Origin: an uncultured Desulfatibacillum sp.
Lineage (GTDB): Bacteria > Desulfobacterota > Desulfobacteria > Desulfobacterales > SpSt-501
Assembly: GCA_964427375.1 (NCBI GenBank)
Contig: CAYRUF010000005.1
Coordinates: 69,286 to 133,285 of the forward strand
Direction: 5' to 3'
DNA length: 64,000 nucleotides
The notes beneath the pieces are model-generated. The model had not been told where the DNA came from, did not search any database, and was given only the letters and a program-made list of their open reading frames with translations. Each line of letters begins with the position of its first letter. The first letter of the stretch is position 1. Below are positions 6,473 through 31,287 of the stretch, piece after piece. The translations under genes were made by a program, and so were the position numbers.

Positions 6473-7267
6473 TTACCTCCTGATCCCGGCCAGTAGCCGC
6501 CGTTCCACATAGTCGATCAACACGCCGATGGCGGCCCCGGCTAAACCCACCGATACCATGCCCAGTACAACCATATCCGGCAGGGCCAGGCGCCGGCCCA
6601 TCGTGATCAGGTAGCCGAGGCCCTGGTCGGCGGCGAGCAGCTCGGCGCCCACCAGATTGGTCCAGGCGCACGCCAGCGCGATTTGCAGCGCGCCGAAGAC
6701 CATCGGCAGTGCCGAAGGCACGCAGAGGGTCTTAAAGATCTGCCAGTCCGTGGCGCCGTACGTGCGGGCCATCTGGATCAGGGTGGGGTTGGTCATGCGC
6801 ACACCGACAAAGGCGTTGATCACGCACGGAACCACGCCGCCGAGCCAAATGATAAAGACCTTGCCCCACAGGCCGATACCGAACCAGAAGACGGTCAGCG
6901 GAATCCAGGCGATCGGCGGAATCGGACGGATCAGCTCGAACAGCGGTCGGGCCAGCCCGCGCACCACACTGAACCAGCCCATGAAGAGCCCCAGCGGCAG
7001 GCCAATACCCAGGGCCAGAAGATACCCCAGGAATGCCTCCTGAGCGCTCACCCAAGCGTGCATGAAAATGGTTGCGCCGTCCGGATTGGGGTCGGTGAGC
7101 TTGGTCACGAACAAATTGCCGACCTGGGTCGGAGCGGCCAGCATGGTCTTCGGCACGATGTCGAGCTGCACGACCAGCTCCCAAGCAGCGAAAAATGTCA
7201 GAACGCTGAAAATCGGCAACAGGATCAAGCTCAATGGTTTTTTGACTTTTACTTCCTCGTACGCCAT
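6473..7267 (-). CDS. ABC transporter permease (NitT/TauT family)
   Basis: Paralogue of the downstream permease. The start is set at ATG 7267 (MAYEEVKVKK...), preceded by GGGGAGG. Confidence 0.85.
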   Translation of the reverse strand: MAYEEVKVKKPLSLILLPIFSVLTFFAAWELVVQLDIVPKTMLAAPTQVGNLFVTKLTDPNPDGATIFMHAWVSAQEAFLGYLLALGIGLPLGLFMGWFSVVRGLARPLFELIRPIPPIAWIPLTVFWFGIGLWGKVFIIWLGGVVPCVINAFVGVRMTNPTLIQMARTYGATDWQIFKTLCVPSALPMVFGALQIALACAWTNLVGAELLAADQGLGYLITMGRRLALPDMVVLGMVSVGLAGAAIGVLIDYVERRLLAGIRR

Positions 7268-7367
7268 TTTTCGCCTCCCCGAGCGCCGGCCCATTGGGCC
7301 GGTGGGAATGGCCGGGCGACCCGGTCGGCCGGCGCCTTGGAAGACGCCGGGCCGGCCGGTGAACCGG

Positions 7368-8456
7368 TTACTTCAGATCGTCCGTCGGAATGGGGGTTTT
7401 GACCAGTTTGAGGAACTTGTCGGTCACGTATGCGGAATCCTTGACCTTGGCGAAATCCTCCGGCTTGAAGCGGCCCTGCGCCGTGAAGAACTCCCCGATC
7501 AGGAACTGCCACTTGCCGGCCGTGCTCATACCCTTGGAAGAATCAAAGAGCTTCAACTGCTGTTCCAAATTCCACACCGGGTGGTTGTCGATGTCCAGTT
7601 TGGCCATCTCCGCGGTCATTTCCATACCCCCCCAATCCTTCATGAATTTTTGGTACAGTTTGACGACCTCGGGGCTGCTGCCGTGCTTGAGCTGGAAGTT
7701 CACGCCCCGCAGGTAGACCCGCAGGAATTTGGCCACGATTTCCGGGTTCTTGTCGCAGAATTCCTTGTCGCCGATGAGAGTGATGGGCAGGGCGCGTCCG
7801 GCGGAGCGGACGTCCCCAACCTTCTTGTAGCCCTTGGACTCGGCGGAGTAGGTGTACGGCGCCCACAACACGACCACATCGCCGATCCCCTTTTCAAACG
7901 CGGCAATGGCCGAGGCCTGATCCATCTGCTTGATGACCACATCGCTGTCCTTAAGTCCGAGGACGTTCAGCCAAGAGCTCATGGCGTAGTGGGCCGAGGA
8001 AACGGTAGTGACCAAAATGGTCTTGCCCTTCACGGTCTCCGGCGAGCCGTACACTTCGGGATTCTCCTTGTTGAACCCCTTGACTTTAAGGATGGGGCTA
8101 TCCGGCCGGACATAAACGTTGTTCGTAATGGATTCATCGTTCCCCAGCCCGATCTGATAGGCACCGTAGCGCAGAGCGCCGACCACCTGCGGAACGCCGC
8201 CGGTGCCGCCCAGCACCCACTGCTTGGCCGGCAAGGCTTCCATCTGGGCCATACCGGAATCAAAGAAGAGCAACTCCAGGTCCAGGCCTTCCTCTTTGTC
8301 CCAGCCCCTCTGCTTGGCCAGCCAGGGGAAGAAGGTTTCATGTTCCGGCATCCAGCAGGTCTTGAGTTTGATGGGTGCTTGGGCCTGTACCGGCGTGAAG
8401 GAAAACACCAGCAAAGCTGCCAGAATCAGTGCACTGAAGAAAGCGAACTTTTTCAT
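7368..8456 (-). CDS. ABC transporter periplasmic substrate-binding protein, NMT1/SsuA/TauA-like
   Basis: 362 aa with a signal peptide (MKKFAFFSALILAALLVFSFTPVQAQA). The overall pattern resembles NMT1/THI5-like binding proteins. Confidence 0.85.
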   Translation of the reverse strand: MKKFAFFSALILAALLVFSFTPVQAQAPIKLKTCWMPEHETFFPWLAKQRGWDKEEGLDLELLFFDSGMAQMEALPAKQWVLGGTGGVPQVVGALRYGAYQIGLGNDESITNNVYVRPDSPILKVKGFNKENPEVYGSPETVKGKTILVTTVSSAHYAMSSWLNVLGLKDSDVVIKQMDQASAIAAFEKGIGDVVVLWAPYTYSAESKGYKKVGDVRSAGRALPITLIGDKEFCDKNPEIVAKFLRVYLRGVNFQLKHGSSPEVVKLYQKFMKDWGGMEMTAEMAKLDIDNHPVWNLEQQLKLFDSSKGMSTAGKWQFLIGEFFTAQGRFKPEDFAKVKDSAYVTDKFLKLVKTPIPTDDLK

Positions 8457-8617
8457 TTAATAGCTCCTTTCCAACATGAGAGTTGTCGAATTCCTTTCCA
8501 AATCTCACTCCTCGTTGGGGTCAGGTCCGGACCCCTGCGGTTTTGCCTTCTGTGGCGGCACCTCCTTATAATTTGGATTTACCCTCTTGGCCGGCCGTAG
8601 TGGCCGGCTCCTCGGCA

Positions 8618-9385
8618 TTACCACCATCGGATCAGTTCCGTGACCTGTTTGCGGATGGCGACGAATTTGGGATCGATCAAGCTGCGTGGCCTGGGAAGGT
8701 CGACCTCGACTTCGGCCTTGATGTTGGTCGGCTTATTGCTGAGAACCAGGATGCGTTCGGCCACGTAAACAGCTTCTTCGATGTTGTGGGTGACGAAGAT
8801 GACCGTGCTTTTGAGCGTCTGCCAGAGTTTGACGAGTTCGTCCTCCAGGTAGTAGCGCAATTTGACGTCCAGCTGGCCGTAAGGTTCGTCCATCAGCAGC
8901 AGGTCGGGGTCCACGGCAAAGGCACGAGCGACGGTGATGCGTTGCACCATGCTGGCTGAGACCTGGTTGGGGTAGAGGTTTTGCGTCTCGGTGAGTCCAA
9001 CCAGATCCAGCATATAATCAACCCGCTTGCGGACGTCATCGCCCTTGAAGCCCTTGATCTCCATGCCGTAGGCTACATTTTGACGGACCGTCCGCCACGG
9101 CAGGCAGGTCGGCTCCTGGAAAACAAAGGAGATGTTGTGCTTCTTGGGGTCGGCCACCTCGCCGTCGATGAAGATGTCCCCCTCGCTGGTGGGCATGAGC
9201 TTGGAAAGGCAGTTTAAAAAGGTGGTCTTGCCGCAGCCCGTCGGTCCGACGATGGCCAGAAACTCGCCCTGGGCGACCTGGAAGTTGATTCGGTTCAGCA
9301 CCAGGAGGTCGCCGAACCGTTTGGTCAGGTTCTTAACTTCAATTTTGACGCGTCTTGTTTCCGGGTTCAGGGCTGCAGCTTCCAA
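8618..9385 (-). CDS. ABC transporter ATP-binding protein with degenerate signature motif
   Basis: Walker A is GPTGCGKTT and Walker B is LLMDEPY, but the LSGGQ position reads VSASMVQR. The start is TTG at 9385, preceded by GAGGAG with a 6-nt spacer. Confidence 0.85.
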   Translation of the reverse strand: MEAAALNPETRRVKIEVKNLTKRFGDLLVLNRINFQVAQGEFLAIVGPTGCGKTTFLNCLSKLMPTSEGDIFIDGEVADPKKHNISFVFQEPTCLPWRTVRQNVAYGMEIKGFKGDDVRKRVDYMLDLVGLTETQNLYPNQVSASMVQRITVARAFAVDPDLLLMDEPYGQLDVKLRYYLEDELVKLWQTLKSTVIFVTHNIEEAVYVAERILVLSNKPTNIKAEVEVDLPRPRSLIDPKFVAIRKQVTELIRWW

Positions 9386-9672
9386 GGAGTGCTCCTCATT
9401 TATGCTGGCTCGGCACTGGCCGGCGATCCAGTGTCTGCTCTGCCGTTGATGATTGTCTCCCGAGATTTTGCAGGGTTTGACAATGCGTTTCTTGGATGCA
9501 TTGGAAAGGAGGTATCTTGACGTGAAGGATGCGGCGAACGCCTGGTGAAATCATAAAACCGCAGGGGCTGAGACTCAAACGCCGCCATGGATCGAACCGT
9601 CCTGCACAAGTGTCCGACATGCGTTTCCGTGAAGGTTTCGACGGCCGGTTGATTGGAGCGATAACCGGCGCT

Positions 9673-9689
9673 TGATATATCAGATATCA
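9673..9689. promoter_or_regulatory. Candidate operator: palindrome TGATATATCA followed by GATATCA
   Basis: TGATATATCA (9673-9682) is a perfect 10-bp palindrome, immediately followed by a repeat of the GATATCA half. It is an AT-rich patch about 290 bp upstream of the operon's first gene. The operon ends with a GntR regulator. Confidence 0.3.
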
Positions 9690-9901
9690 GAAAACGGCGT
9701 CAAGAACTATTTGAGGGCTTTCGGTAGCGGAGCTGAATTAAAAAATGCGCGCTCGGGTAAATGCCGGTCGGCATCAGATGCTCGAAGTCTGAGGATGATT
9801 CCGGGTTGCCTTCGGAACAAACGGGATTGCCCAATCGCTTGAAAAGCGATGCAGAGCCAGATCCATTTCGTGACGGTCGGGAGAAAACGGATACGAGCTG
9901 G

Positions 9902-10178
9902 GTGCTCGTCGTCCTCACCATCTTGGGCCTGGCGGCCGGCGCACCGCTGGCCCTACGTGGTCGGGGCCTTTGGAGTGCTCGCGTTCGCGGCGACGGACCA
10001 GGGGCGGTATCCGGCGGTCCAGCCCCAGCGCATCTTATCCCAGATCGACAGCTTCTCCCTCGTGGCCATGTGCCTCTTTATCACCACCGGGGAAATCATG
10101 AACCGTACCGGCGTCACCCGCGCGCTGGTGGACTTCACCATGTGCCGGGTCGGCCGCCTCCGCGGGGGGTCGGGGTAT
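9902..10178 (+). pseudogene. TRAP transporter large permease (DctM) N-terminal fragment, frameshifted and truncated
   Basis: Two frames read VLVVLTILGLAAGAPLA / PYVVGAFGVLAFAA...ILSQIDSFSLVAMCLFITTGEIMNRTGVTRALVDFTMCRVGRLRGGSGYV. This matches the conserved DctM N-terminus (dSF.LlaiPlFilaGelMn.gGit.rLv.fa..lvG.lrGGl). Only about 100 of roughly 430 expected residues are present. Confidence 0.6.
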
Positions 10179-10392: not shown

Positions 10393-13137
10393 TTATGGAC
10401 CTGCCGAATCGGTGTCGGTGTCCGGCCGGAGGTTGACCGCGGAGACCTTGTATTCCGGGATCTTGGATATCGGGTCGACCGCCGGGCCGGTCAGGAGGTT
10501 GGCGGGAGCTTCGTGCCAGTGGAACGCCATGAAAGCCTGCCCGCGAGCCACCCGCCGGTCGCGGCGGGCGACGGTCCGAATGGCGCCGCGCCGCGAGGCG
10601 ACCCGGATCGGACGGCCGTCGGCCAGGCCGCAGCGTTCGGCATCTTCCGGGTTGACGTCGATCCGGCTGTGCGACACAAGCGTTTCCAGCACCGGCGCGC
10701 GGCGGCTCATGCTGCCGGTGTGCCAGTGCTCCAACACGCGGCCGGTGGTCAGCACGACGGGATAGTCCGCGCTCGGTTCTTCGGCCGGCGGACGGTATGC
10801 CACCACGTGGAACTTGCCCCGGCCGCGGGTAAAACGCTCCGCGTGCAGACGCGGGGTGCCGGGATGGCCTGCATCCCAGACGGGCCATTGCAGGCCGCCG
10901 CACTGCGCCAGTCGCCCGTGGCGGACGCCGGCATAGATCGGCGTGAGCGATGCGATTTCATCCATGATCGCCTCGCTCGAAACATAAGCCATGGAGTAGC
11001 CGCATCGGGTCGCAACGTCCGCCACGATGCGCCAGTCCTCCCGGGCCTCGCTTGGCGCCGGAAGCGCACGGCGCACCAGCTGAATGCGGCGTTCCGTACT
11101 GGTGAAGGTGCCCTCTTTTTCTGCAAAGCAGGCGGCGGGCAGCACGACATCGGCCCGGAGGGCCGTTTCCGTCAGGAAGATGTCCTGGACGACCAGAAAG
11201 CCGATCCGGCTGAAAGCCGTTCGCGCATGGCTCAAATCGGGTTCGCTCATCAGCGGGTTTTCGCCGACCACATACAGCGCGTGCAGCCGTCCCTCGCCGG
11301 CGGCCTGGGCCATCTCCGTCAGCGACAGCCCCGGTTCGGGATCGAGCTCAACCCCCCAGGCCCGCGAAAACCTGGAGCGGACCTCGGCGTCGATCACTTT
11401 CTGGTAGCCGGGGAACACGTTCGGAAGCGCCCCCATGTCGCAGGCCCCCTGCACATTGTTCTGGCCGCGCAGGGGCGAGAAGCCCGTCCCCGGCCGGCCC
11501 ATGTTGCCGGTGAGCATGAGCAGATTGGCGACGGCTTTGACGTTGTCGGTGCCGGTGGTGTGCTGGGTGATCCCCATTCCGTATACGACGACCAGGGTCT
11601 CGGTCGTGCCGAGAATGCGGGCGCTGCGGGCGATGTCAGCCGCCGGGACGCCGGTGACGGCTTCCACGGTATGCGGTTCATAGGCGCCGAGCGAGCGCCG
11701 GAAGAGATCGAAATCCTCGCAGCGTTCGGTGACGAAGTCGGCCTTGAACAGCCCCTCGCGGAGGATGACGTGCATCAGGCCGTTGAGCAGGGCCACGTCG
11801 GTGCCCGGCCGGTGGCACAGGTGCACGGCGGCCATCTCCGCAAGCTCGGTTTGGCGGGGGTCGGCGACGATCAGCCGCGCGCCGTTCAGCCGGACGTTCT
11901 GTTTGATCCTTCGGCCGATGATCGGGTGGCACTCGGTCGTGTTGGAGCCGATCACCAGCAGGGCGGCCGCGCGCCCGATGTCATCGATGCTGTTGCTCAT
12001 AGCCCCCTCGCCGAAGGCAGCCAGAGCGGCCGCCACCGTGGAGGAATGGCACAGCCGGGCGCAGTGGTCGACATTGTTCGTGCGCAGGACGGCCCGGGCG
12101 AATTTCTGCACGATATAGTTCTCCTCATTCGTGCACTTGGCCGAACTCAGCACCCCGACGGCCCGGGGACCTCCTTCCTCGCGCGCGCCTATAAGTCCAG
12201 CCGCCACACGATCCAGGGCTTCCTCCCAGCCGGCTTCGCGGAATAGCTCCGCAACCGCCCCCCGGGTGTGCGACTTGAGAACCCCCTCCCGGCGGATCAA
12301 GGGGCGGGTGAGGCGTTCCGGGTGATGCACGAAATCCAGGCCGAAGCGTCCCTTCACGCACAGGCCGCCCTGGTTCACCGGGCTGCTGCGGTCGCCCTTG
12401 ACCGATACGATGCGGTCCCCGCGGACCCCGAGCGCCATGGAGCAGCCCACTCCGCAGAACGGGCACACCGTCGTAACCTCGCGCTGAGGGACCGCCGCCT
12501 GCTTGGGCACCAGCGCCCCGGTGGGGCAGCGCTCCACGCACTCGCCGCAGGTCTGGCAAACCGACTGCGCCAGGGGCTTCGCACCGAAGGCGCTGACGCG
12601 CGCGCGAAAGCCCCGCGAGGCGAAGTCGATCGCCCCCAGCCCCTGGATTTCATGGCACACCCGCACGCACTTGCCGCACAGGATGCATTTGTTGGGGTCG
12701 AAGGAAAAAGCGGGGTTGGAGTCGTCGATGGGCCTGGCGGCCGCCGTCCGGCGCAGGCGTCCGACGTCGGAAGGCCCCACGCCGAGGTAGCGCGCCACCG
12801 CCAGCAGCTCGCAGTCCCGAGCTTTGAAGCAGGTCAGGCAATCGTTCGGGTGGTTGGCGACGGCCAGCGCGATAATGTTGCGGCGGATGCGGCGGATGGA
12901 CTCGCTTTCCGTGGCGACCACCATGCCGTCCGCGGCCGGGGTGGTGCACGCGGTGGGCAGCCCCCGCAGGCCGTCGATCTGCACGATGCACAGCCGGCAG
13001 GCGCCGAAAGGCTTCAAGAAGGGATCGTCGCAGAGGGTCGGAATGTAGATGCCGGCCGACCGGGCCGCCTGGAGGACGGTCGATCCCGCCGGCGCCTGGA
13101 CGATGCGGCGGTCAATGGTGAGGGAGATCGATTTCAC
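10393..13137 (-). CDS. fdhA: Formate dehydrogenase alpha subunit (molybdopterin, Cys-type) with NuoG-like N-terminal 2Fe-2S/4Fe-4S domains
   Basis: It has an N-terminal 2Fe-2S ferredoxin (CRLCIVQIDG), a HPNDCLTC motif and 2x4Fe-4S (CILCGKCVRVC, CQTCGECVERCP). The MopB 4Fe-4S is TVCPFCGVGCS, the active site is VDHCARLCHSST (Cys at the Sec/Cys position), and RGQNNVQGACDMG is present. I set the start at GTG 13137 (VKSISLTIDRR) with GGAGGA upstream. There is no Tat signal, so the enzyme is cytoplasmic. Confidence 0.9.
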   Translation of the reverse strand: MKSISLTIDRRIVQAPAGSTVLQAARSAGIYIPTLCDDPFLKPFGACRLCIVQIDGLRGLPTACTTPAADGMVVATESESIRRIRRNIIALAVANHPNDCLTCFKARDCELLAVARYLGVGPSDVGRLRRTAAARPIDDSNPAFSFDPNKCILCGKCVRVCHEIQGLGAIDFASRGFRARVSAFGAKPLAQSVCQTCGECVERCPTGALVPKQAAVPQREVTTVCPFCGVGCSMALGVRGDRIVSVKGDRSSPVNQGGLCVKGRFGLDFVHHPERLTRPLIRREGVLKSHTRGAVAELFREAGWEEALDRVAAGLIGAREEGGPRAVGVLSSAKCTNEENYIVQKFARAVLRTNNVDHCARLCHSSTVAAALAAFGEGAMSNSIDDIGRAAALLVIGSNTTECHPIIGRRIKQNVRLNGARLIVADPRQTELAEMAAVHLCHRPGTDVALLNGLMHVILREGLFKADFVTERCEDFDLFRRSLGAYEPHTVEAVTGVPAADIARSARILGTTETLVVVYGMGITQHTTGTDNVKAVANLLMLTGNMGRPGTGFSPLRGQNNVQGACDMGALPNVFPGYQKVIDAEVRSRFSRAWGVELDPEPGLSLTEMAQAAGEGRLHALYVVGENPLMSEPDLSHARTAFSRIGFLVVQDIFLTETALRADVVLPAACFAEKEGTFTSTERRIQLVRRALPAPSEAREDWRIVADVATRCGYSMAYVSSEAIMDEIASLTPIYAGVRHGRLAQCGGLQWPVWDAGHPGTPRLHAERFTRGRGKFHVVAYRPPAEEPSADYPVVLTTGRVLEHWHTGSMSRRAPVLETLVSHSRIDVNPEDAERCGLADGRPIRVASRRGAIRTVARRDRRVARGQAFMAFHWHEAPANLLTGPAVDPISKIPEYKVSAVNLRPDTDTDSAGP

Positions 13138-13163
13138 GACGGCTTCCTCCGCAGGCGGGATCG

Positions 13164-15014
13164 TCAACAGATGGCGATCGCCTGCTGCTTGCAGGACTGG
13201 TAGCACATGCCGCAGCGGGTGCACCGGCTCGTGTCGATGACGTGCGGCGCTTTTTTCTCCCCGGCCACGGCCCCCGTCGGACATTCGCGGGCGCAGCGGT
13301 GGCAGCCCGTACAGCGTTCGGGGTCGATTTCATAGTGAAAAAGATCCCGGCAGACCCCCGCCCGGCATTTGCGGCTATGGACATGACTCTCGTATTCCCC
13401 GCGGAAATAGCGCAGGGTGGAAAGGACCGGGTTGGGCGCGGTCTGCCCCAGCCCGCACAGCGATCCTTTCTGGACGGTCTCGCTCAGGTCGGCCAGCAGG
13501 TCGAGATCCGCCTCCCGGCCGCGGCCGCCGCAGATGTCCTCCAGGATGTCGAGCATCTGTCGGGTTCCCAGGCGGCAGGGCAGGCACTTGCCGCAGGATT
13601 CCGCCTGGGTGAAGCTCAGGAAGTAGCGCGCCACGTCCACCATGCAGGTGTCCTGGTCCATGACCACCATGCCGCCGGAGCCCATGATGGAGCCGGCCGC
13701 CACGAGGGATTCGTAGTCGGCCGGCAGGTCGAAACGGCCGGCCGGGATGCAGCCTCCGGAAGGCCCGCCCGTCTGGACCGCCTTGAGGGCCTTGCCCTCG
13801 GGCGCGCCGCCGCCGATGCCCTCGATGATGTCGCCCAGGCTCATTCCGAGAGGAACTTCGATCAGGCCGGTGCGGCGGATCTTGCCGGCCAACGAAAACG
13901 TCTTGGTGCCCTTGCTGGATTCGGTGCCGAAGCGGGAATACCATTCGGCTCCGCGCTGCAGGATGGCGGAGACGTTGCCGAGCGTCTCGACGTTGTTGAT
14001 GGTGGTGGGCTCGCCCCACAAGCCGGACTGGGCCGGAAACGGAGGCCGGGATCGGGGCATGCCGCGCTCGCCTTGAATCGAGGCCATCAAGGCGGTCTCC
14101 TCGCCGCAGACAAAGGCTCCGGCGCCTTGTTTGATCGCGACCTGGAACCGGAACCGGCTGCCCAATACGTTCCGGCCCAGGAGGCCGCAACGCTGCATAT
14201 CGGCGATGGCTTTTTCCAGACGGGCGATGGCCAGCGGGTATTCGGCGCGCGCGTAGATGTAGCCTTCGTCGGCGCCGATGGCATAGGCGGCGATGAGCAT
14301 GCCTTCCAGCACGGCGTGCGGATCGCCCTCCAGCAGCGCGCGGTCCATGAAGGCGCCGGGGTCGCCTTCGTCGGCGTTGCAGACGATGTACTTCGATCGG
14401 CCGGGGGCCCGGCGGGCGAAAGCCCATTTGGTCCCGGTGGGAAAGCCGGCCCCGCCGCGGCCGCGCAGCCCGGAGTCCGTGACTTCGCGGATCACCGCTT
14501 CGGGCGGCATGTCCAGGGCGCGCTTGAGGCCGGCGTAGCCGCCGCGGGCGATGTAGTGGTCGATGTGGGTCGGGTCGATATGCCCGCAGTTGCGCAGAGC
14601 GATGCGAACCTGGGAGCGCATCATCGGGTGCCGCTCCATGGGCGGGATGCCCTCGATCTCGCCTTGGCCGCAAGTGAACTCCGCCCAACGCCGGCAGGGA
14701 TCGTCCTGTTTCAGGTAGCGGGTGAGGATCGTCTCGGTTTTTTCCGGCGTCAGCCCACCGTAGAAGATCGCCGGCCTTCCCGGCTTGCGGACGCTCATGA
14801 GGGGCTCGGCATAGCACATGCCGATGCAGCCGACCTCCATGAAGCGGGCCAGGACACGAGCCGATTTCAACGTCTTTTTGGCGGCGGCCAGGACCTGTTC
14901 GGCACCCGAAGCGCGGCCGCAGGTCCCCATGCCGATGGCGATCAACGGCTGCGGAAGGTTTTCCAGCCACGCCCACTCCCGTTCCGCCTTGGCTTGCAGC
15001 GACTGGTAGTCCAT
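13164..15014 (-). CDS. NuoF/HydB(HndC)-type NAD(P)H-FMN flavoprotein with N-terminal thioredoxin-like 2Fe-2S and C-terminal 2x[4Fe-4S] domains
   Basis: 616 aa with GRGGAGFPTGTKW, CNADEGDPGAF, ESCGKCLPCRLG and a C-terminal CTGCHRCARECP...CTRCGMCYQSC. The N-terminus has GTCGRASG...GCIGMCYAEP. Confidence 0.9.
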   Translation of the reverse strand: MDYQSLQAKAEREWAWLENLPQPLIAIGMGTCGRASGAEQVLAAAKKTLKSARVLARFMEVGCIGMCYAEPLMSVRKPGRPAIFYGGLTPEKTETILTRYLKQDDPCRRWAEFTCGQGEIEGIPPMERHPMMRSQVRIALRNCGHIDPTHIDHYIARGGYAGLKRALDMPPEAVIREVTDSGLRGRGGAGFPTGTKWAFARRAPGRSKYIVCNADEGDPGAFMDRALLEGDPHAVLEGMLIAAYAIGADEGYIYARAEYPLAIARLEKAIADMQRCGLLGRNVLGSRFRFQVAIKQGAGAFVCGEETALMASIQGERGMPRSRPPFPAQSGLWGEPTTINNVETLGNVSAILQRGAEWYSRFGTESSKGTKTFSLAGKIRRTGLIEVPLGMSLGDIIEGIGGGAPEGKALKAVQTGGPSGGCIPAGRFDLPADYESLVAAGSIMGSGGMVVMDQDTCMVDVARYFLSFTQAESCGKCLPCRLGTRQMLDILEDICGGRGREADLDLLADLSETVQKGSLCGLGQTAPNPVLSTLRYFRGEYESHVHSRKCRAGVCRDLFHYEIDPERCTGCHRCARECPTGAVAGEKKAPHVIDTSRCTRCGMCYQSCKQQAIAIC

Positions 15015-15023
15015 GGCCTCCCC

Positions 15024-16022
15024 CTAATCCTCCTCCGGCCGCTCCGGGATGGGGATGCGCTCCTGCTCCCGAATGTCAGCGAAACACCGGCAGGCACTGG
15101 CCGGGTTCATGCGGCCCTTGACGGAATCGTCCACCACCATGACCGGCGCAATGGCGCAGGAACCGAAGCAGGCCACGGTTTCGAGGGTGAACTGCCGGTC
15201 CGGCGACGTCTCCCCGGGAGACAGCTCGAAGCGGTGATGGATTTCCTCCAGAATGCGGTCCGAGCCTTTGACGTGGCAGGCCGTGCCGCGGCAGACGCGG
15301 ACGATGTGGCGGCCGACGGGGGCGAGGCGGAACTGCTCGTAGAAGGTGGCGGTGCCGAAAACGGCGGCAGCCGGCCGCCCGGTCAGCTGCGCGACGGCCT
15401 CGAGGGCGTTCTCCGGCAGATATCCCAATCGCCCCTGAACCATCTGGAGCATGGGAATCACCTCGTCGGGCCGGCCGGCGAATTGACTGCGCAGCTCGGC
15501 CAGGAGGCGGTCGATGCGGGCCGGGTCCTCGCGGGTCAGATGCAGGTCCGCTTCGAGCGGCGCGGCCGGCGGCGCCGGCGCCGGCACGGGGTGCGCGGCC
15601 TCCGGTGCCGTTGCCTTCTTCGAACCCAGGGCGCCTTTGACCGCCGAAACGAATTCGTCTTCGCTGAACGGCTTGGAGAGATAGTCTGCCGCCCCGAGTT
15701 TCATGGCCGTGACCGCCGAGTCCACCGTGGAATAGCCGGTGATCACGATCACGCCGGTTTCCGGCCGGTCGTGCTTGACCTGCCGAATCACCTCCAGGCC
15801 GTCGATGTCGGGAAGACGCAGGTCGGCGATGAGCAGGTCGACCTCCTTGTGATGGAACGTGTCCAGCGCGGCCTGGCCGGACATGGCCAGGTCCACGGCG
15901 CGGTAGCCCTCTTCGTCCAGGATCATCTGAAGCCCCCTGGCCACGCTGGTTTCGTCTTCCAGCACCAGAATCTGCGGCCATGGGCGTTCTGCCGAATGGA
16001 CGGCTTCCTGCAGCGCATTCAT
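15024..16022 (-). CDS. Response-regulator receiver domain fused to NuoE/HydC-type [2Fe-2S] ferredoxin subunit
   Basis: Start at ATG 16022 (MNALQEAV...). REC motifs are ILVLEDE, DLLIADLRLPDIDG, VITGYS and YLSKPF. An Ala/Pro linker is followed by NuoE motifs VCRGTACHVKG and ACFGSCAIAPV. Confidence 0.85.
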   Translation of the reverse strand: MNALQEAVHSAERPWPQILVLEDETSVARGLQMILDEEGYRAVDLAMSGQAALDTFHHKEVDLLIADLRLPDIDGLEVIRQVKHDRPETGVIVITGYSTVDSAVTAMKLGAADYLSKPFSEDEFVSAVKGALGSKKATAPEAAHPVPAPAPPAAPLEADLHLTREDPARIDRLLAELRSQFAGRPDEVIPMLQMVQGRLGYLPENALEAVAQLTGRPAAAVFGTATFYEQFRLAPVGRHIVRVCRGTACHVKGSDRILEEIHHRFELSPGETSPDRQFTLETVACFGSCAIAPVMVVDDSVKGRMNPASACRCFADIREQERIPIPERPEED

Positions 16023-16056
16023 GCGGGTGTCCCCCTGTGCGATGGAGCGGCCCGGC

Positions 16057-16752
16057 CTACCAGGCCTCCCGTTCCAGCCGATGGTAGATGAATCGGAGCT
16101 GATCGCCCGAAAGGGTCTCGACGTGTTCACGGAGCCACTGCACGTCGCCCGAGGCGATCGCCGCCTTGGCTTCGGCGGTCAGCCGGTAGCCGTCCAGAAC
16201 CGCGGAACCCCGCTCCATCAGCTCCTTCCAGAAGCCTTCGTCCAGCCGGGTGCGGTCCAGTACCGCGACGACCTCGCGTTTCTGGATGAGCTTGTCTTCC
16301 TCGCACTTTTCAACCTTCTGGATCACCTCTTCGGTGGGGGCCGATTTATGGCCCTTGAGCGCGTCGCCCACGGCCGTTTTGATCTCATCCTCGGTGAAGG
16401 GCTTGGGCAGGTAGTCGAACGTGCCCAGCTTCATCGCATCCACCGCGGAGGAAACGCTCGCATAGCCGGTGATAACCACCACACCGGTCTCGGGCCGCCG
16501 CGTCTTCACCTCGCGGATAACGTCCAGGCCGCTGATATCCGGCAGCCGCAGGTCCGCCACCAGCAGGTCGAACGCCTTCTGCGAGAAGCGATCCAGGGCA
16601 TCGCGTCCGGTCATGGCCAAATCCACGGCGTAGCCTTCTTCGCCGAGAACGATTTCAAGGCCCTTGGCCACGCTCATTTCATCCTCCATCACGAGAATCC
16701 TGGGCGGGACCGGGTGCGGTCGGCTGATGGTGGTGTCTTGGAAGGTAAACAT
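16057..16752 (-). CDS. Stand-alone receiver-domain protein with unassigned ~85-aa C-terminal helical domain
   Basis: Start at ATG 16752 (MFTFQDTT...), preceded by GAGGAGGA. REC motifs are ILVMEDE, DLLVADLRLPDISG, VITGYA and YLPKPF. The C-terminus (LDEGFWKELMERGSAVLDGYRLTAEAKAAIASGDVQWL...) faintly resembles LigA-subunit/NHLP-type helical domains. Confidence 0.8.
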   Translation of the reverse strand: MFTFQDTTISRPHPVPPRILVMEDEMSVAKGLEIVLGEEGYAVDLAMTGRDALDRFSQKAFDLLVADLRLPDISGLDVIREVKTRRPETGVVVITGYASVSSAVDAMKLGTFDYLPKPFTEDEIKTAVGDALKGHKSAPTEEVIQKVEKCEEDKLIQKREVVAVLDRTRLDEGFWKELMERGSAVLDGYRLTAEAKAAIASGDVQWLREHVETLSGDQLRFIYHRLEREAW

Positions 16753-16791
16753 GGTCGATCCTCCTCTTTGAGCGGTCCTGCCATGGTATGT

Positions 16792-16807
16792 AGCAAGCCG
16801 CATGCCG
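16792..16807 (-). promoter_or_regulatory. Sigma-54 (-24/-12) promoter of the REC-REC/NuoE-NuoF-FdhA operon
   Basis: The minus strand reads CGGCATGCGGCTTGCT against the consensus TGGCACG-N4-TTGCW, with correct GG-N10-GC spacing. It lies about 40 nt upstream of ATG 16752. Confidence 0.6.
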
Positions 16808-16846
16808 CTCGCAGGAGCAACTCGGGCGCTTATGAATTTAATGAAA

Positions 16847-16859
16847 TATCAATTTGTTG
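16847..16859. promoter_or_regulatory. IHF-like site between enhancer repeats and the sigma-54 promoter
   Basis: TATCAATTTGTTG matches WATCAANNNNTTR inside an AT-rich patch. Confidence 0.35.
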
Positions 16860-16902
16860 GAAGTGGGCTGGGAATTGGAAGGCCGGCTTTCGGGATTGAA
16901 AG

Positions 16903-16983
16903 CGTATCGCCAACCATACGCCGGCGGCCGGGACCGATCTATTTTACTACTAAATTCGATTAGTTATTACCGTATGATTGGCG
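16903..16983. promoter_or_regulatory. Candidate enhancer (UAS): inverted copies of a 13-bp motif
   Basis: CGCCAACCATACG (16908-16920) and its reverse complement with one mismatch, CGTATGATTGGCG (16971-16983). The first copy also forms a local palindrome, CGTAT-N8-ATACG (16903-16920). Both lie 100-175 bp upstream of the -24 element. Confidence 0.4.
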
Positions 16984-16992
16984 GAACGCCAG

Positions 16993-18426
16993 TCACCGGG
17001 GCTCATTCGAAGGGCCGGTGTCGGCTCCTCGGTCGGGGGTGATGCCGTGCCGTTTCAGCAGGGTGGAGAAGTTGGGCCGCTGCATGCCGACAGCCTTGGC
17101 CGCCGCGCTGATGTTCCCTCCGGCGTTGGAAAGCGCTTTGAGCAGAAAGGCCTTTTCCATCCGGCCATAGTGCTCCTCAATGATGCGTTTCTTTAGCGCA
17201 CGCAGCTCGCCCAGCGTGCCGGGGACCCGGCTGGCGGCACCTCCCCGGCTGCCGTGCAGATTGTCCATCAGGTGGTGATAATCCAGGATGGATTCGTCCG
17301 CCATGATCACCAGCCGTTCCACCACATTTTTGAGCTGCCGCACGTTGCCCGGCCAGTCATGGTTGATCAGGGCTTCCAGGGCTTCGTCGCTGAAGCCCTG
17401 GATCCGCCGGCCCATCTCGCGGCAGTAGATGCGGAGGAAGTGATAAGCCAGCTTGGGGATGTCCTCGCGGCGCTCCCGCAGCGGGGGGATGAAAATGGGC
17501 AGGACGCTCAGCCGGTAGAACAGATCCTCGCGAAACCGGCCCTCCTCGGCCAGCGACCTCAGGTCCTGGTTGGTGGCGGCGATGATGCGGATGTCGGTCC
17601 GGCGCGGCAGGCTTGCGCCGACCGGCCGGTACTCGCGGGTTTCCATCACGCGCAGCAGCTTGCCCTGAACGTCCAGCGTCAAATTGGCCACTTCGTCCAG
17701 GAACAGGGTCCCGCCGTTGGCCACTTCGAAAATGCCGGGCTTATCGTGGGTGGCGCCGGTGAACGCTCCTTTGACATGCCCGAACAGCTCGCTTTCCAGC
17801 AGCGACGGCGCAAAGGTGCTGCAATCGGCCACCACGAACTGCCGGTCGGCGCGGTGGCTGTGGGCGTGGATGGCCTTCGCGAACAGCTCCTTGCCGGTGC
17901 CGCTTTCGCCCTCCAGCAGAATGATGGTCTCGGTCGGGGCGGCCCGGCGGATTTCCTCGAAGATGCGCAGCATTTTCGGGTTTTCGCCGACGATGTTGCT
18001 GAAATCAAATTTGGCATACAGCTGTCGGCGCAGGGCCAGGTTTTCCTCGGTCAGCCGCCGGGTCTTGACGGCTTTCTCAACGGTCAGGACGAGCTCTTCG
18101 TCCGAAAACGGCTTGGACAGGTAGTCGAAAGCGCCCAGCTTCATGGCTTTCACGGCGTCCGGCACCGAGGAATAGCCGGTCATGACCACCACGCTGACCC
18201 TGGGACGCTCGCGGTGGATGACTTCGAGGACTTGAAGCCCGTCGATGTCCGGGAGCTTCATGTCCAGCAGGACCAGTTCATAGGGGTTTTTCCCCAGCGA
18301 TTCGAGGCCGCTGCAGCCGTCGTGCACGGCGTCCACGGCGTATCCCTGGTCGCACAGGACCAGGCGGCAGCCGGCACAGACGGCAGGTTCGTCGTCGATG
18401 ATCAGGATGGATGCGGACGGCGTCAT
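16993..18426 (-). CDS. Sigma-54-dependent response regulator (NtrC family: REC-AAA+-Fis HTH)
   Basis: The REC phospho-acceptor context is LVLLDMKLPDIDG. Other motifs are GESGTGKELFA, GAFTGA, ESELFGH and a C-terminal HTH (GNISAAAKAVGMQRPNFSTLLKRHGI). Confidence 0.92.
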   Translation of the reverse strand: MTPSASILIIDDEPAVCAGCRLVLCDQGYAVDAVHDGCSGLESLGKNPYELVLLDMKLPDIDGLQVLEVIHRERPRVSVVVMTGYSSVPDAVKAMKLGAFDYLSKPFSDEELVLTVEKAVKTRRLTEENLALRRQLYAKFDFSNIVGENPKMLRIFEEIRRAAPTETIILLEGESGTGKELFAKAIHAHSHRADRQFVVADCSTFAPSLLESELFGHVKGAFTGATHDKPGIFEVANGGTLFLDEVANLTLDVQGKLLRVMETREYRPVGASLPRRTDIRIIAATNQDLRSLAEEGRFREDLFYRLSVLPIFIPPLRERREDIPKLAYHFLRIYCREMGRRIQGFSDEALEALINHDWPGNVRQLKNVVERLVIMADESILDYHHLMDNLHGSRGGAASRVPGTLGELRALKKRIIEEHYGRMEKAFLLKALSNAGGNISAAAKAVGMQRPNFSTLLKRHGITPDRGADTGPSNEPR

Positions 18427-18439
18427 CGTCGGTCCTCGG

Positions 18440-19663
18440 TCAAGCCGGGCCTTGCGCGGAGGGCAGGGCCACGGTGAATTGCGATCCCTGTCCCGGCCGG
18501 CTGGACACCTCCAGCCGCCCCTGGTGGTTTTTGACGATTCCGAAACTGACCGCCAGGCCGAGCCCGGAGCCGTTTTTCTTGGTCGAGAAGAAGGGCTCGA
18601 AGATCTTGCCCAGATTTTCGGCCGGGATTCCGCAGCCGGTGTCGATGATGTCCACGGTTAGCTCGCGGCGGGCCGAATTCGCGCGGGATCGAATGGTGAT
18701 CGTGCCGTTCTCGTCGATGGCTTGGGCTGCGTTGAGCAGCAGGTTCACGAACACCTGCTCCAGCTGGTTGGCGTCGACGCAGCCGTCCGGCAGATCGGGG
18801 GCCAGATCTTTTTCGATTCGGATGTGCCTCAGGCGGAATTCGTTCTCAAGGATGTTGAGGGATTTCTGAAGGATGGTGGTGATGCTGGCCGGGGTCTTGC
18901 GGGGCTCTTTGTCGCGGGCGAACTCCAGCAGCTCCTGGATGATGAACTTGCAGCGTTGGGTTTCCCGCATGATGATCCCCAGGCCTTCTTTCAAGGGGCC
19001 TTCGTCCGGAACCTTCTTGAATAAATTCGAGCTGAAGAGCAGGATTCCGGCCAAGGGGTTGTTGATCTCGTGCGCGATCCCGGCCGCCATGCGTCCCAAC
19101 GCCGAAAGCTTCTCCGTCTGCAAGGCCAGCAGGTCGAACTTGTTCTTCTGGGCTTCGATGAGGCGGTTTTTTTCGATCGCCAGCGCGCACTGGTCCGCCA
19201 GGGAAACCAGAAAGTCGCGCTCCTCGTCCGATACCGATCGTGCTTCAGCAAAGTAAATCCGCAGGATGCCGGCGATGTGGTTGCGGAAACTCAGGGAGGT
19301 GTCCAATACCATCCGGATCCCCTCCCTGGCAACCTCCTGGGGGTAGTGGATGCGAGGGTCGTGATGGATATCCTCGATCACGATCACCCGGCTTTGACGA
19401 TACAGGTCCGTGATCAGGTTTTTCTGGCTGACGGGTCCTTTGGCCAGGTAGGCTTCGCTGAGATTGTAGGCGGCGCTCAACTCCAGCTCGTCCGTGTCCA
19501 GGTTGAGGATGCGCAGGATGGCGCCCTTGGCGCCCAGCGCCTCGGTGGCCTTCCAGACCGCCAGGTCCAGAACTTCCTTCAAATCGGTGCTGGAGTGCAC
19601 CGCCTTGCTGATTTCGCGGAAGGTGTTGTAAAAGACATGGAGGTTGCTGGCGTTCGGCTTCAT
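18440..19663 (-). CDS. Cytoplasmic GAF-domain sensor histidine kinase
   Basis: 407 aa with no TM segment. It has an N-terminal GAF-like region, an H-box (AAGIAHEINNPL), an N-box (LLNAAQA) and G-boxes (DTGCGI, GSGLGLA). Confidence 0.9.
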   Translation of the reverse strand: MKPNASNLHVFYNTFREISKAVHSSTDLKEVLDLAVWKATEALGAKGAILRILNLDTDELELSAAYNLSEAYLAKGPVSQKNLITDLYRQSRVIVIEDIHHDPRIHYPQEVAREGIRMVLDTSLSFRNHIAGILRIYFAEARSVSDEERDFLVSLADQCALAIEKNRLIEAQKNKFDLLALQTEKLSALGRMAAGIAHEINNPLAGILLFSSNLFKKVPDEGPLKEGLGIIMRETQRCKFIIQELLEFARDKEPRKTPASITTILQKSLNILENEFRLRHIRIEKDLAPDLPDGCVDANQLEQVFVNLLLNAAQAIDENGTITIRSRANSARRELTVDIIDTGCGIPAENLGKIFEPFFSTKKNGSGLGLAVSFGIVKNHQGRLEVSSRPGQGSQFTVALPSAQGPA

Positions 19664-29239: not shown

Positions 29240-29731
29240 ATGCTACCCCAGGAACTGAAAGATCGTCTCGAGGCCGAAATCAAGCAGGTCGAGCATCCGC
29301 GGGAGCTGGCGGTGGACGTGATGTTCGCCGTTCAGGACCACTACGGCTACCTGAGCGACGAGGCCCTGGCCGAGGCCGCGGCGATGCTCGGCATGACGCC
29401 GCTGGAGCTCGACGAGTTGGCCACCTTTTATACTTTCACTTTTCGAGAGCCGGTAGGCCAATACGTGATCCACGTCTGCGACAGCGTGGTCTGCTGGATG
29501 AACGGCTACGAGTCGGTGCGGGACTACCTCTGCCGCAAGCTGGGCATCGCCCTGGGGGAGACCACCCCCGACGGGTTGTTTACCCTGCTGCCGGTCTGCT
29601 GCATCGGCTACTGCGACCGTTCGCCGGCCATGCTGGTCAACCGCCGGGTGCACGGCGAACTGACGCCGGAGAAGATCGACGCGATTATCGAGACGTGTCG
29701 GCAAAAAGGCGGGGGAAGGACCCCCCCGTAA
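29240..29731 (+). CDS. nuoE: NADH-quinone oxidoreductase subunit E
   Basis: 163 aa with 2Fe-2S Cys motifs (HVCDSVVCWMNG ... CCIGYCDRSP). Confidence 0.9.
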   Translation: MLPQELKDRLEAEIKQVEHPRELAVDVMFAVQDHYGYLSDEALAEAAAMLGMTPLELDELATFYTFTFREPVGQYVIHVCDSVVCWMNGYESVRDYLCRKLGIALGETTPDGLFTLLPVCCIGYCDRSPAMLVNRRVHGELTPEKIDAIIETCRQKGGGRTPP

Positions 29732-29750
29732 TTGATGGGTGAGCAACCAA

Positions 29751-29840
29751 CGATACTGGCTGCTCGATACGGGATACGGGATGAAAGAGGGGCCATTTCG
29801 CATATTTTATCCAGCATCCAGTATCCAGTATCCCGCATCG
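29751..29840. repeat. Inverted arrays of heptamer repeats (GATACNG units) in the nuoE-nuoF spacer
   Basis: The left arm is CGATACTGGCTGCTCGATACGGGATACGGGAT (29751-29782). The right arm is ATCCAGCATCCAGTATCCAGTATCCCGCATCG (29809-29840). The arms match at 24 of 32 positions as reverse complements (counted by eye), and each is built from about 4.5 tandem 7-mers. Confidence 0.7.
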
Positions 29841-29909
29841 CGTTTCGAATACGACGAATGAAGGAACAAAGGCCAAACTGCCGTTGCAGGCGGACAGCTG
29901 CGAGAGTAA

Positions 29910-31226: not shown

Positions 31227-31248
31227 CCCTGATGAATGTGAGTTTTTT

Positions 31249-31285
31249 GTGGGAGTGGGAGCGGCATCTGGCCGCGATGATCGGT
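31249..31285. repeat. REP-like element, half copy in opposite orientation (copy 2)
   Basis: TGTGGGAGTGGGAGCGGCATCTGGCCGCGATGATCGG resembles the reverse complement of the right half of copy 1. It ends 2 nt before the nuoG start codon. Confidence 0.6.
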
Positions 31286-31287
31286 TT

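Follow-up and report, generated by a model that had tools for sequence, protein, structure and literature searches.

Within a 64,000-nucleotide stretch of DNA from an uncultured Desulfatibacillum sp. (GenBank assembly GCA_964427375.1, contig CAYRUF010000005.1, positions 69,286 to 133,285 of the forward strand; the whole stretch is hereafter the window, with positions counted from its first letter), the gene at 16057-16752 on the minus strand encodes a response regulator that couples a receiver domain (REC) to a helical C-terminal domain of about 77 amino acids (residues ~155-231), to which we give the name DOM. This gene, here called REC-DOM, is the conserved first gene of a sigma-54-dependent formate dehydrogenase (FDH) operon, and is not specifically the partner of the REC-NuoE fusion encoded next to it. 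Comparison of sequences and gene neighbourhoods indicates that DOM is an undescribed domain family, surrounded almost exclusively by formate-handling genes; full-text literature searches returned no description of the protein, of its cassette or of a REC-NHLP architecture. Our leading, if tentative, reading makes REC-DOM an accessory response regulator, an adaptor that would bind protein under the control of phosphorylation and act on the formate machinery.

A conserved first gene of formate dehydrogenase operons

On the minus strand of the window, genes for a GAF kinase, an NtrC-type activator, REC-DOM, REC-NuoE, NuoF and FdhA follow one another in this order, with the following features:

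18440-19663, minus strand: cytoplasmic GAF-HisKA-HATPase histidine kinase (Pfam)
16993-18426, minus strand: NtrC-type sigma-54 activator, REC-AAA+-HTH_8 (Pfam)
16902-16921, minus strand: inverted repeat GCGTAT-N8-ATACGC, some 100 nt beyond the promoter on its upstream side, where the activator may bind
16792-16807, minus strand: sigma-54 (-24/-12) promoter CGGCATGCGGCTTGCT, a 10/12 match to TGGCACG-N4-TTGCW
16057-16752, minus strand: REC-DOM gene
15024-16022, minus strand: REC-NuoE fusion (Pfam), its REC a derived paralogue of the REC-DOM receiver
13164-15014, minus strand: NuoF-like NAD(H)/FMN subunit (Pfam and NCBIfam)
10393-13284, minus strand: FdhA catalytic subunit with a NuoG-like N-terminus, given as the longest open reading frame (ORF; TIGR01591, 805 bits against a cut-off of 666)

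An initial annotation of this DNA had taken REC-DOM for the first gene of the FDH operon, and its setting bears this out: the start codon follows the sigma-54 promoter at a distance of 40 nt, and only 34 nt separate the stop codon from the start of REC-NuoE. A genome scan (one genome per species, using an alignment of the closer relatives) returned 80 REC-DOM loci which, where classified, belong mostly to the Desulfobacterota (Desulfobacterales, Desulfatiglandales, Desulfarculaceae, Syntrophales), with Desulfosarcina alkanivorans PL12 (locus L060) and Dethiosulfatarculus sandiegensis (L040) as cultured carriers. Domain queries derived from the window were mapped onto all ORFs of these loci, and the denominators of the synteny counts are loci with enough sequence. 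Counted in this way, the 4 kb upstream of REC-DOM contain a homologue of the sigma-54 activator in 59 of 63 loci, a GAF kinase adjoins it in 70 of 78, and FdhA is found within 8 kb downstream on the same strand in 46 of 48. The initial annotation had held that absence of the gene from orthologous FDH operons would count against its proposal; the gene is present in them, with FdhA downstream of it in the 46 of 48 loci just given.

The upstream signals are conserved as well. A -24/-12 element matching TGGCACG-N4-TTGCW in at least 10 of 12 positions stands 60-160 nt upstream of REC-DOM in 73/83 loci, against an expectation of about 2.7% of random 360-nt windows. Upstream of the promoter recurs a palindrome related to the inverted repeat listed above, CGTATAA-N4-TTATACG, whose k-mer is present in 45/72 loci and in 2.3% of random windows; the adjacent NtrC-type activator probably binds there.

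The enzyme that follows REC-DOM is of more than one type. Ten of the 46 operons with FdhA are of the NuoE-NuoF-FdhA type, whilst the remaining 36 have no NuoF nearby. In the sole NuoF-less locus inspected in detail (L060, D. alkanivorans PL12, 12332-18640), REC-DOM heads an HdrA-like FDH operon encoding an HdrA-like flavoprotein of 936 amino acids, a ferredoxin-like protein and an FdhA whose reading frame contains a TGA, presumably a selenocysteine codon; REC-DOM is followed here by an inserted GAF kinase and stand-alone REC. The enzyme of this locus may represent a flavin-based bifurcating FDH. A Usp gene and a GAF-only gene often follow in the HdrA-like or NuoF-less loci, with the same match pattern in 36/46. 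REC-NuoE is present in only 7 of about 80 REC-DOM loci. The initial annotation, which was framed around REC-NuoE, was therefore too narrow: NuoF is missing from 36/46 FdhA loci, and DOM also occurs without REC beside formate transporters. The candidate reading of REC-DOM as a NuoE-specific subunit is rejected on the same count of loci with FdhA within 8 kb.

Several variants and neighbouring features were recorded alongside these loci. One locus carried under two handles (L001 and L024; CP070697.1, Desulfobacterales bin589) keeps REC-DOM, REC-NuoE, NuoF and the sigma-54 promoter, with FdhA, activator and kinase all missing within 10 kb, and is perhaps a remnant or a rearranged copy. A REC-REC-DOM variant of about 380 amino acids (L003, L052, L057; proteins P0002-P0045) is common in metagenomes. 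In the window itself, the final 120 nt of nuoF are also covered by the longest FdhA ORF (13164-13284, minus strand); the true start of FdhA is probably a GTG near 13140, because the first recognisable domain, Fer2_4, begins at residue 51 of the longest ORF. Further genes resembling NuoE, NuoF and NuoG/FdhA-N form a second group at about 29260-32590 on the plus strand; they have 33-38% identity to the copies of the FDH operon, are accompanied by neither REC nor DOM, and probably encode a different NADH-linked complex. Between 10282 and 16899, many long ORFs run antisense to or overlap the real genes on both strands (for example 13242-16091, plus strand, 949 amino acids), and these are not genes, being by-products of a G+C content of 62-68%.

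An intact receiver joined to an unassigned helical domain

The ORF at 16057-16752 is a genuine gene. It starts with ATG at 16752-16750, preceded at a spacing of 7 nt by AGGAGG; its closest homologue, P0001, has the same length of 231 amino acids, the identical start residue and 92% identity, and hundreds of full-length relatives of 229-232 amino acids exist in public data. The sequence itself was matched in DNA metagenome runs only (freshwater and others). Set against L004, the closest genomic orthologue, the codons show more synonymous than amino-acid changes both in the REC half (24 versus 10) and in the linker and DOM half (19 versus 11), and both halves are thus under purifying selection. 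The gene comprises the following features:

16057-16752, minus strand: REC-DOM gene, 231 amino acids plus stop codon (ORF, ribosome-binding site, start codon, full-length homologues, purifying selection)
16760-16765, minus strand: ribosome-binding site AGGAGG, 7 nt before the ATG, read from the sequence
16369-16698, minus strand: receiver domain, residues 19-128 (PF00072, E=4e-27; (beta-alpha)5 fold in the AlphaFold2 (AF2) model)
16552-16554, minus strand: codon of Asp67, the predicted phospho-acceptor (D67 kept in 80/80 REC-DOM proteins)
16243-16335, minus strand: long linker helix, residues 140-170 (31 residues; AF2 secondary structure and alignment conservation)
16060-16290, minus strand: DOM, residues 155-231 (no Pfam match; NF038399 below its cut-off; AF2 confidence of 83; synteny)
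16060-16068, minus strand: terminal E-x-W motif, E229-A230-W231, with the stop directly after (conserved C-terminal end)

Pfam recognises only the receiver (residues 19-128) and assigns no family to residues ~140-231. The full-length AF2 model, built on a 71-sequence alignment, has a predicted local distance difference test score (pLDDT) of 84.7 and places the receiver first, then the helix of residues 140-170, then four helices up to residue 230; a model of DOM alone reaches 83. The description first given of this protein, as a stand-alone REC with an unassigned and helical C-terminal part, is therefore upheld, the C-terminal part being predicted as all-helical at a pLDDT of 83-85.

The REC half is an ordinary PF00072 member of the NtrC1 type. 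It scores 94.9 bits against a cut-off of 30.2 (E=4e-27), its model shows the five strand/helix pairs of the (beta-alpha)5 CheY fold, and its top Foldseek match is the phosphorylated NtrC1 receiver 1zy2 (E=1.6e-11, 39% identity), with a template modelling (TM) score of 0.81-0.91 normalised to the target and a root-mean-square deviation (rmsd) of 0.7-0.8 Å. Foldseek with the full-length model gives REC matches only, RssB and PorX among them. The residues of phospho-chemistry are E23-D24, D67, T95, Y114 and K117, and because D24, D67, K117, T/S95 and Y/F114 are each conserved in 80/80 homologues, the receiver should be a working phospho-acceptor.

DOM is no less conserved in its own motifs. The motif LIQKREV..VLDRT spans the C-terminal half of the linker helix and the beginning of DOM, S-G-D-x-x-W is invariant in the family alignment, and E-x-W forms the last residues of 83/83 REC-fused and 53/55 stand-alone homologues; AF2 confidence is low for these final residues. 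The domain is mildly acidic, with a mean net charge of -1.9 when fused to REC and -2.7 when alone, and its alignment contains no conserved Cys or His. From its fold class, its acidity, the lack of cofactor ligands and the conserved, low-confidence E-x-W end, which resembles a docking motif, we infer that DOM works through protein-protein contact.

Stand-alone DOM keeps company with formate genes

When DOM alone was used in an exhaustive HMMER search, 161 representative clusters were matched at E<=0.001, many of them stand-alone proteins of 74-131 amino acids; no Pfam domain is assigned to the stand-alone DOM proteins among these matches, and those with a source label come from metagenome-assembled genomes of Chloroflexota/Anaerolineae. 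Three independent look-ups placed DOM directly upstream of a formate/nitrite transporter gene (FNT, PF01226), beside genes for a response regulator and a GAF kinase. A metagenome scan with the stand-alone DOM alignment then supplied 52 further loci, 48 of them informative, and formate genes adjoin DOM in 36 of these 48. FNT follows DOM directly in 24 of them and precedes it in 4; in a further 6 NuoF/FdhA lies downstream, and in 2 it is FdhA that lies upstream. Among the 12 exceptions, six offer under 350 nt of sequence downstream of DOM.

Many stand-alone loci carry a divergent pair of GAF kinase and response regulator genes; among those with at least 1.8 kb of upstream sequence, 11/23 have no response regulator gene within 1.7 kb. 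Where a regulator is present, its output type varies among DOM loci (sigma-54 activator, GerE-type, OmpR-type), and the link to formate genes persists. At locus L120, a divergent GAF-HisKA_3 kinase and a GerE-type regulator precede DOM-NuoE-(NuoF::GltD)-FdhA, so that DOM is the first operon gene, the position it has in the window, under a different class of regulator. L108 consists of a DOM-FNT pair with no two-component genes nearby.

Further observations on these loci and on distant relatives of DOM complete the survey. The metagenomic L120 encodes, at 6823-9939, a NuoF::GltD-like fusion of 1038 amino acids with Complex1_51K, NADH_4Fe-4S, Fer4_20 and Pyr_redox_2 domains. A conserved ORF of 58-59 amino acids, predicted to contain a single transmembrane helix, is often found between DOM and FNT (L084, L087, L088, L090 and others), and the N-terminal motif M-[LF]-Q-E-x-V-x-V-Q-D-[KR]-P is common to the stand-alone DOM proteins. 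More distant relatives (P0164, P0152, P0167, P0156) are fusions to MerR/HTH_17, Fer4_22, GCV_H and BON, with P0152 combining Fer4_22 and DOM and P0167 combining GCV_H and DOM, both on short contigs that say little about their context; the fusion of DOM to the lipoyl-carrier-like GCV_H has a Molydop_binding gene as neighbour.

DOM as a sister family within the NHLP/LigA clan

The initial annotation had noted a faint resemblance of the C-terminal part to LigA and NHLP-type helical domains, and this holds at the level of the clan only. NCBIfam NF038399 (Os1348 family NHLP clan protein) matches the DOM of the window at E=7e-5 and 22.8 bits, under its cut-off of 40; it matches 23 of 30 DOM relatives, with scores of 19-33 bits that all stay below the cut-off (eight relatives at 19.5-32.7 bits). 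Pfam Frankia_peptide matches 8/30, and LigA (PF07746 / TIGR02792) a single one of the 30, at E of about 0.2; no LigB gene was seen in the annotated DOM loci. A profile search of the PDB with DOM gives only E>=0.16, its weak matches concentrating in the N-terminus of nitrile hydratase alpha, in LigA and in SonA, a LigA-domain RiPP (ribosomally synthesised and post-translationally modified peptide) precursor, and a single-sequence PDB search gives chance-level matches to HP0062 only. Foldseek with the DOM-only model finds no significant structural neighbour: the best match is the LigA-like part of DesB (E=2, TM score of 0.59 normalised to the query over 75 columns), and SonA is matched with a TM score of 0.71-0.74 normalised to the target and an rmsd of about 2 Å.

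DOM is hence best placed as a sister family inside the NHLP/LigA clan, and it is not a member of NF038399, TIGR03793 or PF07746, since the cut-offs or defining features of these families, where tested, are not reached. With NHLP/LigA-clan proteins it has in common a helical fold of similar size and, as described by Haft et al. (PMC2887384), the motifs D..F...L and L-[ST]-x-E-x-x-A-A-[IL]-x-x-G. The same paper gives a Gly-Gly leader cleavage motif among the defining features of NHLP RiPP precursors; DOM differs in having an invariant G202-D203 where Gly-Gly would stand, and in that its final ~28 residues are conserved to the end, with no hypervariable core rich in Cys, Ser and Thr (compare PMC2887384). 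It also differs in context: in about 140 loci its identified neighbours are two-component, FDH and FNT genes, and no maturase or ABC export genes lie nearby. From the clan at large it is set apart by the conserved E-x-W at its C-terminus and by this setting of formate and two-component genes.

With respect to known outputs of response regulators, no DNA- or RNA-binding family (OmpR, NarL/GerE, NtrC/Fis-HTH, LytTR, ANTAR) is matched in REC-DOM by Pfam at E<=0.01. The lack of a DNA-binding signature reported at the outset is consistent with this, as no helix-turn-helix (HTH) type family is found at that threshold and the domain is net acidic; nor did the C-terminal domain match any known output domain, an outcome that would have spoken against the original proposal. 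DNA-binding and ANTAR outputs are rejected as family assignments on these grounds.

An old, single duplication of the receiver

The receivers of REC-DOM and REC-NuoE had been judged by eye to be roughly two-thirds identical, and BLASTP gives 66% (81/122, E=9e-52), compared with 38% between the receiver of REC-DOM and that of the adjacent NtrC-type activator. The recent duplication that was proposed from the tandem paralogues is rejected. When 205 REC domains from REC-DOM loci were compared, the best match of each was a member of its own architectural class in another genome, and the identity between REC-DOM and REC-NuoE within a locus (0.66-0.70) does not exceed the best values across genomes (0.69-0.72). 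In a neighbour-joining tree, one clade unites REC-DOM, REC-NuoE and both receivers of REC-REC-DOM, with activator and stand-alone receivers outside; the seven REC-NuoE receivers, that of the window included, are monophyletic and fall inside the REC-DOM clade, where their sister group is a subclade of 17 REC-DOM receivers that includes the same genomes. Because the REC-NuoE clade is nested, best matches fall within class and identities show no within-locus excess, the duplication is, as judged from these sequences, single and old, and proceeded from the widespread, ancestral REC-DOM to REC-NuoE in one sub-lineage.

A proposed adaptor acting on the formate machinery

The initial annotation had left three roles for REC-DOM side by side: a phosphate sink, an adaptor or an extra subunit. 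Sequence and synteny argue against a pure sink and against a NuoE-specific subunit, and a phospho-switched adaptor is the role that we prefer, tentatively. The starting points are the observed gene order, promoter, intact receiver residues, helical fold and formate-specific synteny of DOM; the route that we infer from them, by way of a signal, phosphotransfer, a conformational switch and a partner, would run as follows. The cytoplasmic GAF histidine kinase would sense a signal inside the cell, for which formate or something correlated with it is the most plausible candidate, and phosphorylate the NtrC-type activator, which would fire the sigma-54 promoter at 16792-16807, such that REC-DOM would be made first and REC-NuoE, NuoF and FdhA after it. 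REC-DOM would then be phosphorylated at Asp67, altering the alpha4-beta5-alpha5 face of the receiver and the linker helix, and exposing or re-orienting DOM with its E-x-W tail, whereupon DOM would bind some part of the machinery that handles formate. The FDH complex would be the likely target in this lineage, with docking perhaps helped by pairing with the 66%-identical REC on NuoE; for stand-alone relatives the target would be the adjacent FNT formate channel or FDH. Phosphate drawn by REC-DOM from the same pathway would inevitably damp phosphorylation of the activator.

Several lines are in keeping with this adaptor. Firstly, the signalling half appears functional and its expression governed by the local regulator: the phospho-residues are intact in 80/80 proteins, the fold is that of NtrC1, and the sigma-54 promoter (73/83) is accompanied by the palindrome. 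Secondly, the tie to formate is general, with FdhA within 8 kb downstream in 46/48 loci across two unrelated types of electron-transfer module, and stand-alone DOM beside FNT or FDH in 36/48, including its first-gene position in L120 and its occurrence without two-component genes in L108; this link outlasts a change of regulator type. Thirdly, the modules recur in other combinations: the REC clade has been re-used in REC-NuoE and REC-REC-DOM, and distant DOM relatives are fused to the redox-type modules Fer4_22 and GCV_H. Finally, DOM is mildly acidic with no conservation of Cys or His, and solved proteins of the NHLP/LigA clan use the fold in heteromeric contacts, as in LigA-LigB, SonA-SonM and the association of the nitrile hydratase alpha N-terminus with the beta subunit.

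Other considerations weigh against the adaptor. FNT and FDH are unrelated, and the versatility, of the PII kind, that a single domain would need to bind both is unproven; FNT genes are absent from the 83 Desulfobacterota loci and from the window. Docking of REC upon REC is not a general mechanism, because REC-NuoE is present in only 7 of about 80 loci. Two-component genes are very frequent neighbours as well (activator 59/63, kinase 70/78), and the fusion to REC ties DOM to phospho-signalling, a tie that fits about equally a role of REC-DOM in feedback.

Such feedback is the nearest alternative, and a possible if somewhat doubtful one: REC-DOM would modulate its own two-component pathway, combining a phosphate sink with binding of DOM to the kinase (for example its GAF sensor) or to the activator, and as the first sigma-54 product it would compete for the phosphoryl groups of the GAF kinase and so reset or sharpen induction of the formate operon. 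The flanking kinase and activator speak for it, as do the invariable placement of REC-DOM directly after the sigma-54 promoter, the fusion itself (in the Rosetta-stone sense that it links DOM to phospho-signalling) and the divergent GAF kinase and regulator pairs of many stand-alone loci. There is also a precedent in Escherichia coli, where hycA, the first gene of the FhlA/sigma-54-dependent hyc operon, antagonises the formate-sensing activator. However, DOM occurs with three regulator output types, by which the AAA+ domain would not be its specific target; 11/23 stand-alone loci lack a response regulator within 1.7 kb, and L108 has none nearby; a pure sink needs no strongly conserved 77-residue domain, let alone one that also exists without REC; and REC-DOM shows no homology to HycA (no Pfam match). 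Control at the level of enzyme or channel is slightly favoured over feedback, the two mechanisms being close, because the only near-universal neighbour of DOM is a formate enzyme or channel, because the regulator varies or is absent, and because the REC clade has become fused to an enzyme subunit.

A bolder form of the adaptor, to which we give less credence and which we offer as speculation, would make DOM the founding member of a formate-dedicated signalling domain, a small PII-like switch directly gating cytoplasmic FDHs and FNT channels, and possibly their sensor kinase, to which fusion with REC would add phospho-control in the Desulfobacterota.

That DOM is instead a sensor, binding a small molecule such as formate and conveying its occupancy to the phosphorylation or dephosphorylation of REC or to partner proteins, seems unlikely. 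The strict synteny with formate genes, in two unrelated operon types and in two phyla where lineage labels exist, would suit it, and so would the distant relative fused to MerR/HTH_17, where effector domains of the MerR family sit; yet the residues that never vary (L, W, A, G, D, E) are for the most part hydrophobic or structural, with no conserved basic cluster for a carboxylate, the fold has no known ligand-binding member, and the neighbouring kinase already carries a GAF sensor domain. We consider improbable a constitutive structural or maturation subunit of FDH in which REC serves as a docking module only. It would be in line with the predicted co-transcription of REC-DOM with FDH subunit genes, with the physical fusion of a paralogous REC to NuoE and with the small helical accessory subunit of FdsABGD enzymes, but full conservation of the phospho-acceptor set is unexpected in a purely structural role, DOM also stands beside FNT channel genes with no FDH nearby, and no FDH subunit is found among the matches listed from the PDB profile and fold searches, nor any FDH-subunit family of Pfam.

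Slightly more improbable still is a conventional response regulator with an unrecognised HTH in DOM: although a receiver with a helical C-terminal domain of ~75 residues is the commonest response regulator layout, and automated annotations label relatives 'DNA-binding response regulator', the protein of the window has no HTH match, the 30 aligned members yield one HTH_38 match in one member, the domain is net acidic in fused and stand-alone form alike, its fold resembles LigA/NHLP and not HTH, and the operon already has a dedicated activator with promoter and palindrome. The reading of DOM as an NHLP-type ribosomal peptide precursor or leader, for which its clan-level similarity speaks (NF038399 in 23/30, Frankia_peptide in 8/30, SonA among the fold matches), is effectively refuted, and its probability negligible, given the invariant G-D in place of Gly-Gly, the conserved tail, the lack of maturase or export genes nearby and the fusion to REC.

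Significance

In anaerobic and syntrophic communities electrons are carried centrally by formate, and FDHs with NuoEF-type or HdrA-like modules may serve in electron bifurcation and in the biotechnological reduction of CO2, whilst the regulation of such enzymes, and of formate channels, is largely unknown outside the enterobacteria. The loci described here define a conserved cassette, namely a GAF histidine kinase, a sigma-54 activator, a palindrome with a -24/-12 promoter, and REC-DOM as first gene, together with a DOM family placed among formate genes in the Desulfobacterota and, where stand-alone loci carry a label, the Chloroflexota. The synteny signal is strong and spans two unrelated operon types and probably two phyla. 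The cassette thus offers a handle on post-transcriptional control of formate metabolism and a marker with which formate regulons can be annotated in metagenomes. It also introduces a formate-linked, non-DNA-binding output class for response regulators, and the NHLP/LigA scaffold gains a use in signalling beyond RiPP leaders and subunits of dioxygenases and hydratases. Were the PII-like switch to hold true, post-translational control of formate flux to and from CO2/NAD(P)H or ferredoxin would fall to a two-component system in sulfate reducers, syntrophs and the carriers of stand-alone DOM.

Comparison with known systems

Among receivers, those of NtrC1 and DctD are closest: REC-DOM shares their fold, all five signature residues and the long helix after alpha5. 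It differs in that no AAA+ or DNA-binding module follows the receiver, the output being DOM, and in having the acidic pair E-D instead of D-D. Amongst FDH components, FdsD of FdsABGD is likewise a small helical protein of a NuoE/NuoF/FdhA-type operon, but it has no REC and no link to an FNT gene. Homology of REC-DOM to FdsD or to HycA is rejected, there being no Pfam match to either and neither appearing among the matches listed from the PDB profile and Foldseek searches.

HycA, GlnK-AmtB, PhyR and RssB are, by analogy, the nearest functional counterparts, none of them homologous. HycA is a small non-enzymatic protein encoded by the first gene of a sigma-54-dependent formate operon beside the activator, and REC-DOM occupies the same position; HycA of the E. 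coli FhlA regulon has no REC, however, and the activator next to REC-DOM is of the two-component NtrC type, unlike the GAF-containing FhlA. PII/GlnK with AmtB offers a parallel in layout, a small signal protein directly upstream of the channel or enzymes of one metabolite and tied to a two-component system, although the fold of DOM is unrelated and no ligand or covalent-modification site is known for it. The outputs of PhyR (a sigma-like domain), RssB (a PP2C-like domain) and CheY (none) are unrelated to DOM, but in all three, phosphorylation of a receiver controls a protein-protein interaction, which is the principle that we propose, by analogy, for REC-DOM.

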